Origin: a virus
Lineage: Monodnaviria; Loebvirae; Hofneiviricota; Faserviricetes; Tubulavirales; Inoviridae
IMG/VR virus record: IMGVR_UViG_2851976983_000002
Direction: 5' to 3' (one strand)
Length of the DNA stretch: 29,483 nt
The notes under the pieces were generated by a model, which saw nothing but the letters and a program-made list of their open reading frames with translations, was not told the origin of the DNA and ran no database searches. Below are positions 1 to 174 of this stretch, piece by piece (positions within the stretch are counted from its first letter, which is position 1; each line of letters starts with the position of its first letter). A program made the position numbers and the translations under genes.

Positions 1-174
1 TTAACTGATGAGTTTCTGTTTTATTCGCTGTTTTTTCCTGCCAGTGAGCTTCCTTATCTTCAGCGCAACAGGAAAAATCACTCCGGCAAACAACAGGATA
101 GCCACGCCAATCGCAGCGCCACCTATTATGTGCTTCATCAGCAGGTCTAATATGATCTCACTCCAGTTGTTCAT
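1..174 (-). CDS. Small single-pass membrane protein (57 aa) with basic C-terminal tail; toxin-like or exclusion-like accessory protein
   Basis: Start at ATG 174..172 preceded on the minus strand by GAGGGGAAGA Shine-Dalgarno; glycine-rich hydrophobic helix IIGGAAIGVAILLFAGVIFPVAL then KIRKLTGRKKQRIKQK. The 132-aa track ORF is rejected as an N-terminal extension. Confidence 0.45.
   Translation of the reverse strand: MNNWSEIILDLLMKHIIGGAAIGVAILLFAGVIFPVALKIRKLTGRKKQRIKQKLIS

Follow-up and report, generated by a model that had tools for sequence, protein, structure and literature searches.

A predicted small membrane-protein gene abutting attP in CTXphi-like, dif-integrated filamentous prophages of Escherichia coli

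A short minus-strand open reading frame (here the smORF) stands beside the attachment site (attP) of a filamentous prophage of Escherichia coli, and it raises the question of whether it is a gene at all and, if so, whether its product is the membrane toxin that an earlier note, made from the sequence alone, had taken it for. The window, that is the whole stretch of 29,483 nucleotides that was analysed, is a CTXphi-like, dif-integrated filamentous (inovirus) prophage which on self-comparison resolves into a tandem array of two variants in the order A-A-B-B. The variant A copies, at 1..8270 and 8271..16540, are 100% identical on self-comparison, and two copies of variant B occupy the window from 16541 onward, the last one being truncated at the window end. 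By the same self-comparison, A and B share 97% identity in the structural module, 90% in the attP region and 87% in a purine-rich element, and their sequences part directly after attP, at 16540/16541. The prophage carries a Rep_trans gene followed by genes for a Zot-like assembly protein and a GspD-like secretin, the latter two according to RefSeq annotation, and the Zot-like protein shows ~30% identity to its counterparts in Ff and other characterised phages. The same prophage adjoins hipBA in E. coli E24377A and in ~20 further complete genomes. A literature search found no description of this phage or of the smORF protein; the paper on the UPphi phages presents these as related to IKe and I2-2 (Lineavirus) and contains no mention of E24377A (PMC7307601). 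The features of the window are the following.

174..1, minus strand: smORF copy 1 (ATG 174..172, TAA 3..1; 57 aa)
8444..8271, minus strand: smORF copy 2, identical to copy 1 since 1..8270 equals 8271..16540 (stop codon 8273..8271)
184..179, minus strand: Shine-Dalgarno (SD) sequence GAGGGG of copy 1, 4 nt before the ATG
8449..8454, minus strand: SD sequence of copy 2
236..326 and 8506..8596, in variant B 16636..16723: purine-rich element (pyrimidine-rich on the minus strand)
391..368 (copy 2: 8661..8638), minus strand: intrinsic-terminator-like hairpin after the 70-aa regulator gene and upstream of the smORF
477..689, minus strand: 70-aa regulator-like gene (phrog_2503; RHH-like), in the same orientation as the smORF
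7758..7864 versus 8063..8174, and 16028..16134 versus 16333..16444: direct duplication of ~107 nt, each unit with a 14-17-bp hairpin and then a T-run
8170..8269, plus strand: attP hairpin, 100 nt, forked, in the packaged strand (ssDNA fold)
16440..16539, plus strand: the same hairpin at the A2/B1 junction

In the packaged strand attP folds with a free energy of -43.7 kcal/mol, compared with -14.5 +/- 2.8 for shuffled sequences (z -10.4). Its XerC-type arm, AGTGCGCATAA, and its XerD-type arm, TTATGTTGAAA, pair with their inverted copy around a 6-nt bulge, the two inverted dif-like sites folding as a forked hairpin of the CTXphi type. The junctions of the single-copy prophage in E24377A read GGTGCGCATAA joined to TGTGTTACACG on the left and AGTGCGCATAA joined to TGTATATTATGTTAAAT, a regenerated dif, on the right, which at the sequence level is consistent with strand exchange on the XerC side and regeneration of dif on the right side. 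In CTXphi this pattern is that of Xer-mediated integration of a folded single strand. The resemblance to CTXphi of Vibrio cholerae thus covers the forked attP hairpin and the XerC-side exchange regenerating dif on one side, as well as the tandem arrays and the leftward regulator gene next to attP (the ig-1/rstR left arm). We know of no protein-coding gene between attP and rstR in CTXphi, whereas here a small membrane-protein gene occupies the space between attP and the regulator; this position, abutting a CTX-like attP hairpin, is noteworthy. With its stop codon (8271..8273) 1 nt away from the hairpin base, the smORF is at the attachment-site edge, as the earlier note had placed it, and wherever attP is retained the stop codon of the smORF-family member is found within ~10 nt of it. 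Moreover, both strands of the inner stem (GGCCGCTGCG/CGCAGCGGCC) carry a T-run, which would end both the rightward structural and the leftward smORF transcripts, so that the attP hairpin looks like a bidirectional terminator. In locus L002 the corresponding attP region is found at 9900..10000 and 18170..18200. The direct duplication of ~107 nt (85% identity) falls in non-coding sequence that separates the secretin gene from attP, and its hairpins with T-run, at 7772..7803 and 8074..8111, could be a packaging signal or terminators. Right after the secretin gene there is a 41-aa minus-strand ORF (7438..7563), the RefSeq hypothetical protein WP_001413216.1, whose sole family match is sub-threshold, to the Pfam family 'Doppel', and is probably noise.

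The smORF product, MNNWSEIILDLLMKHIIGGAAIGVAILLFAGVIFPVALKIRKLTGRKKQRIKQKLIS, is 57 aa long and is entered in RefSeq as the hypothetical protein WP_001409659.1. Its best 19-residue Kyte-Doolittle window scores 2.62 (residues 16-34), the net charge is -1 in the N-flank and +9 in the C-flank, and a single-sequence AlphaFold2 model predicts one helix over residues 3-56 with a mean pLDDT of 80, in agreement with the 57-aa single-TM protein with a very basic tail that had been described before. When six-frame ORFs of 40-90 aa from the non-redundant part of the window were taken as background, 8 of the 87 showed a comparable hydrophobic segment and none combined it with a C-flank charge of at least +5. 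The SD sequence, also called strong in the earlier note, gives an SD/anti-SD duplex of -8.5 kcal/mol, the strongest among the phage genes tested (-2.2 to -7.4 for the others).

Both strands are open across the smORF region for ~380 nt, at 8..382 on the plus strand and 1..399 on the minus strand, and the plus-strand ORF uses the same wobble positions as the smORF. In the smORF frame pN/pS ranges from 0.37 to 0.64, within and between family types; values of 0.4-0.6 indicate moderate constraint only, and the antisense frame gives the same range. Given the shared wobble positions, pN/pS cannot separate the two frames. The quality of the replacements and the conservation of hydropathy, in turn, select the minus-strand frame. 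Indeed, the mean BLOSUM62 score of replacements is +0.2 to +1.4 in the smORF frame versus -0.4 to -1.0 in the antisense frame, the share of replacements scoring at least 0 is 70-100% versus 27-60%, and the hydropathy correlation r is 0.76-0.98 in the smORF frame (0.76-0.94 for divergent pairs) versus 0.29-0.48 for divergent pairs in the antisense frame. The frame of 57 codons is intact in 11 independent loci, with ~8 synonymous and 12 conservative non-synonymous substitutions as counted by eye, the exceptions being a start codon lost in an error-ridden 9.6-kb record (L005) and a C-terminus replaced in L007. The plus-strand ORF 8..382 (124 aa) was considered as the gene instead and rejected: it is without an SD, it extends across the boundary of homology at 183, and its replacements are radical. 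At one plasmid locus PGAP annotated a plus-strand ORF (L016 2928..3179). Judged on these comparisons, the minus-strand smORF is very probably a genuine protein-coding gene. It would be otherwise if the ORF were fortuitous or decaying, or if cis-acting DNA beside attP merely happened to be open, and the openness of both strands, the identical pN/pS of the antisense frame, the losses in L005 and L007 and the lack of the segment in variant B all agree with that. However, the conservative replacements are confined to the minus-strand frame, the protein motif of the family is kept at 47% nucleotide identity, and the boundary of the conserved block coincides with the SD, itself the strongest in the phage. 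We consider it very unlikely that there is no functional gene here.

The smORF has relatives beyond the 57-aa type. In another group of prophages an A-type regulator and Rep are combined with a different attP-side region, in which a 46-aa ORF, MHDMILDLLMKYLIAGSLFGMFLFSVITIVLPIVLRAHNKINRSND, has the same place and orientation. This region is found at full length in 16 genomes, and PGAP leaves the 46-aa ORF unannotated at the 16 full-length loci. The 57-aa and 46-aa proteins align without gaps at 30% identity (BLASTP, pairwise E 1e-8), and the nucleotide identity is 47%. A 46-aa variant also occurs in a tandem satellite-like element of ~3.35 kb with ~six genes, and IncFII and other plasmids carry a remnant 50-aa variant embedded in IS fragments. 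Furthermore, a profile search yielded four additional metagenomic variants. The satellite-like element and the plasmid remnants are located as follows.

L017 1..5237 (E. coli cM8a): tandem copies of the satellite-like element, with a Rep of the II/X family, an SSB, an 87-aa protein, a 201-aa multi-HTH protein, a 61-aa regulator and a 46-aa smORF homologue
L004 9001..9174 and L016 3057..3209: smORF-family remnants on large conjugative or IncFII plasmids, among IS fragments

The satellite-like element of L017 has two attP-like hairpins (2224..2320 and 2405..2500), and assembly or secretin genes are absent from the stretch seen. On the plasmids, the L004 remnant is accompanied by attP and non-coding phage fragments, and in both L004 and L016 genes for type IV pili are found a few kb or less from the remnant. 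The plasmid remnants may be due to integration by Xer at dif-like sites of the plasmids, or to coincidence.

In the alignment of 12 family sequences, L11, M13, K14, I17, G19, G23 and P35 do not vary, and I8, D10 and L12 hardly do. The features found family-wide are an N-proximal (I/V)(L/M)DLLMK motif, a GxxxG (G19xxxG23) and a proline. The charge of the tail, at +9 in the 57-aa type versus +1 to +3 in the 46/50-aa members, is not among them; the 46/50-aa members lack an SD, and the leader of the 46-aa type is unrelated. The invariant motif, the GxxxG and the proline, taken with the variable tail charge, suggest specific helix packing of the predicted protein rather than bulk membrane damage. 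Protein searches through 5.8 billion proteins by word index and 1.84 billion representatives by phmmer found no remote homologue, only E. coli relatives of at least 88% identity, and searches that included GTDB species genomes, phage records and PDB profiles gave only E. coli or gut-metagenome relatives and no annotated family. Pfam, PHROGs, NCBIfam and PADLOC contain no match to the smORF above threshold; the profile search of the peptide that the earlier note had proposed thus leads to no described family. The smORF family is a small, E. coli-restricted and previously unrecognised group of 42-57-aa single-helix proteins, encoded opposite the structural genes and abutting the attP of CTXphi-like dif-integrating prophages and of a satellite-like element.

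The homology common to all loci of the 57-aa type is exactly 1..183, which corresponds to the smORF plus AGGGGAAGA. On the side away from attP, this block adjoins at least four left arms that are unrelated to each other.

Variant A left arm: RHH-like 70-aa regulator and Rep_trans
Variant C left arm: DUF2726 protein and replication endonuclease
Variant D left arm: HTH protein and 371-aa Rep
Variant E left arm: TolA-C-domain protein and replication endonuclease

By its boundaries, the smORF with its SD is a discrete block tied to attP. In variant B, 69 nt (16541..16609) with no ORF and no family match stand in place of the 186-nt smORF cassette, and the family profile, run against all six frames of the window, returned the two A copies only and nothing in variant B, which bears out the earlier statement that B has no equivalent gene. 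The B-type junction was found in one of 5,426 complete E. coli genomes (UTAK-18), and there, as in the window, it belongs to an array that also holds a smORF-bearing copy. The B-specific segment has a 47-nt partial match on a 2.7-kb plasmid record (NZ_AP019859.1). The 57-aa type is present in 21 genomes, the same count as for the structural module (an agreement of the two totals), and in tandem arrays the smORF is found at up to 10 places per genome. The smORF is dispensable in cis, as variant B illustrates, and its product could be supplied to variant B in trans. The description of the gene as accessory cargo in the earlier note is accurate to that extent but does not fit the most widely shared feature of the left arms, the junction without it being rare. 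Indeed, across at least four replication modules and the satellite-like element the smORF behaves, as far as these sequences go, as the most constant feature of the left arm. Virions from heterologous tandem CTXphi prophages are reportedly hybrids (Davis and Waldor, in 2000, are said to have found this), and reshuffling of the left arm against replication modules is what such CTXphi biology would predict.

As to expression, the terminator that had been claimed between the regulator gene and the smORF was located as the minus-strand hairpin at 391..368, with 8 pairs, 6 of them G-C, followed by TTTTTCTCC. The sole consensus minus-strand promoter found in variant A, at 835..808, is upstream of the 70-aa regulator gene, and between the hairpin and the smORF no promoter reached 9 of 12 consensus positions. 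Hence, the smORF of variant A can be expressed only if transcription reads through the hairpin or starts from a weak promoter. The interval between the smORF and the minus-strand gene preceding it shows no minus-strand terminator in variants C, D and E and no consensus promoter of its own; the smORF is therefore probably the last cistron of a leftward, regulator-side transcription unit.

Upstream of the smORF lies the purine-rich element, 91 nt long in the first copy (236..326) with the core GGGAGGAGGACG. It is kept in variant B (87%) and in all related loci, in a diverged version in the phages of the 46-aa type, and has a constant place between the smORF (or attP) and the regulator module; in place of the adjoining 184..235, variants C, D and E have a sequence that is unlike it and shorter. 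A packaging signal or a complementary-strand origin hairpin was considered for this element but gained no support, as its ssDNA fold is no better than that of shuffled sequences (z -1.2, -1.8 and +1.1); no Rfam match was found either. The earlier note had seen here a long leader of the smORF with an anti-SD-like stretch. The CCUCC-rich stretch does exist, on the minus strand of 236..326, but it is outside the smORF unit, whose homology stops 9 nt upstream of the ATG, and belongs to an independent conserved element that variant B keeps without the smORF. On the strand complementary to the packaged DNA, no gene comes between the purine-rich element and the smORF downstream of it, and one could therefore imagine that the smORF is transcribed from the incoming single strand, before or during complementary-strand synthesis, to give an immediate-early membrane protein. 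Leading-region genes of conjugative plasmids are expressed from single-strand promoters. We regard such expression as highly improbable in this phage. If it did occur, the smORF could shut the cell against further filamentous phage or bias ssDNA-hairpin Xer integration versus replication, and its strict coupling to attP, even in a satellite-like element, would be functional and go beyond the placement of cargo.

In order to discriminate between possible functions, the smORF was compared with known small membrane proteins. The best functional analogy is PfsE (PA0721) of Pseudomonas phage Pf4, a 30-aa inner-membrane protein that binds PilC and blocks superinfection (PMC8764522). Both are very small single-helix membrane proteins of temperate inoviruses, and both PfsE and the smORF family have a conserved short motif, which in PfsE mediates binding to a host membrane protein. 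Unlike the smORF, which is on the opposite strand beside attP, PfsE is encoded in a plus-strand core operon; the two proteins have no sequence similarity, and the YxWGW motif of PfsE is absent from the 12-sequence alignment of the smORF family. PftP4 (PA0726.1), a 33-aa membrane peptide of Pf4 that is toxic on overexpression (PMC11769263), is likewise a small inovirus-encoded membrane peptide, but it is co-transcribed with zot on the structural strand and no homology to it was found. The leaderless major coat proteins of the Pf3 type share with the smORF product an acidic N-flank, a hydrophobic helix, a basic C-tail and an inferred N-out/C-in topology. However, a role as a Pf3-type major coat protein was rejected, the smORF being on the opposite strand and outside the structural operon, and no homology was found. 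Furthermore, the phage already has a coat gene with a signal peptide and two minor-coat candidates (ORFs 2576..2677, 2680..2838 and 2757..3134).

Of the roles that the earlier note had named besides that of a toxin, exclusion and lysis modulation are both conceivable. On the basis of the PfsE analogy, the function that we put forward, tentatively, is that the smORF product may bind a membrane partner and so shield the carrier cell from related filamentous phages. The protein would be made from double-stranded DNA only (prophage or replicative form), as the last leftward cistron, and its transcript would terminate at attP, where the hairpin offers a T-run on either strand. The protein would insert with the N-terminus out and the C-terminus in, given the acidic N-flank and basic C-flank, and the GxxxG and proline in the helix together with the (I/V)(L/M)DLLMK motif would pack against a specific inner-membrane partner with no non-specific membrane damage. 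The outcome would be protection from further infection or over-replication by related filamentous phages, possibly as superinfection exclusion at the Tol or pilus entry step, PfsE-like in function. Directly upstream of the smORF in variant E is a gene (L014 1836..2201, minus strand, in a prophage of E. coli UTME-13) whose 121-aa product bears a Sec signal peptide, MKKKITIALMLIGVALSANA, as well as a TolA C-terminal domain (PF06519, E 2.4e-13). It is plausible that this protein is a candidate periplasmic decoy for incoming phage pIII and hence a superinfection-exclusion factor. Counting against the exclusion proposal, variant A has a terminator before the smORF and no intervening consensus promoter, variant B does without the smORF, the 46/50-aa members have no SD and the 46-aa type goes unannotated by PGAP, constraint as measured by pN/pS is moderate only, and the product is dissimilar in sequence to PfsE.

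The product might instead harm the membrane, either as an RNA-held type I toxin or as a permeabilising peptide like PftP4, and could then serve for prophage addiction, for abortive infection or to keep host growth in check while phage is being produced. Like the type I toxins (Fst/Ldr, Hok, TisB), the smORF encodes a small hydrophobic peptide of fewer than 60 aa with one TM helix. The strongly basic tail, which completes the architecture of many of these toxins, is present in the 57-aa type only, the 46/50-aa members being without it. The Fst model (NF033608) gives a sub-threshold match in 3 of 7 members (best E 0.0048), but for the member shown here the score is 13.8 bits against a cut-off of 26 and covers the hydrophobic stretch only. 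The predicted leader fold does pair the SD region locally, yet the leader does not accompany the smORF: homology ends 9 nt upstream of the ATG and, at the loci compared, no conserved structured 5' leader travels with the ORF. As for an antitoxin RNA, no plus-strand consensus promoter was found near or inside the smORF in any variant (a consensus scan, which a weak promoter could escape), plus-strand transcription from the attP side meets the hairpin and its T-run, and no Rfam family reached threshold, the hairpin matches seen lying far below it. In addition, the presence of the gene at up to 10 places per genome is tolerated with no recognisable co-amplified antidote, and the N-proximal motif, GxxxG and proline of the family, which set it apart from type I toxins, point to specific packing. 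The toxicity of the overexpressed Pf4 peptide (PMC11769263) speaks for the toxin reading, but a toxic function of the smORF seems unlikely, and the type I reading of the earlier note is not supported, there being no toxin-family membership, no conserved leader and no family-wide basic tail. Slightly less probable is a function in the phage life cycle, in which the product would be a membrane factor for integration, array stability or assembly, acting for example through the membrane domain of FtsK, septal Xer recombination or the machinery for pI/pIV export. Such a helper would explain the fixed place beside attP, down to the distance of the stop codon, and the retention of the gene in so minimal an element as the satellite; the match of its genome count to that of the structural module and the occurrence of the rare B junction only in arrays with a smORF-bearing copy also fit. 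However, B-type copies lack the gene in cis and are integrated and duplicated nonetheless, its place beside attP is equally explained by cargo accumulating at genome ends, and its product was not found to resemble XafT or any Xer factor. Moreover, CTXphi-type integration is known to need only XerCD and host factors.

The small membrane proteins that filamentous phages encode can reprogram the surface of the host, PfsE being an example, or be harmful to the membrane, for which PftP4 is an example. Very few of them have been characterised, and we know of none from the dif-integrating inoviruses of E. coli. The smORF family is invisible to Pfam, PHROGs and NCBIfam. If its members turned out to be mere hypothetical morons, the annotation would still be fixed and a canonical type I toxin locus made unlikely. 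If, as we tentatively propose, they exclude related phages or modulate Tol or pili, they would affect the competition of prophage arrays and satellites at dif, and envelope or pilus functions of the host would possibly be affected as well. Several of the carriers, the ETEC reference strain E24377A among them, were obtained from human stool or as clinical isolates.
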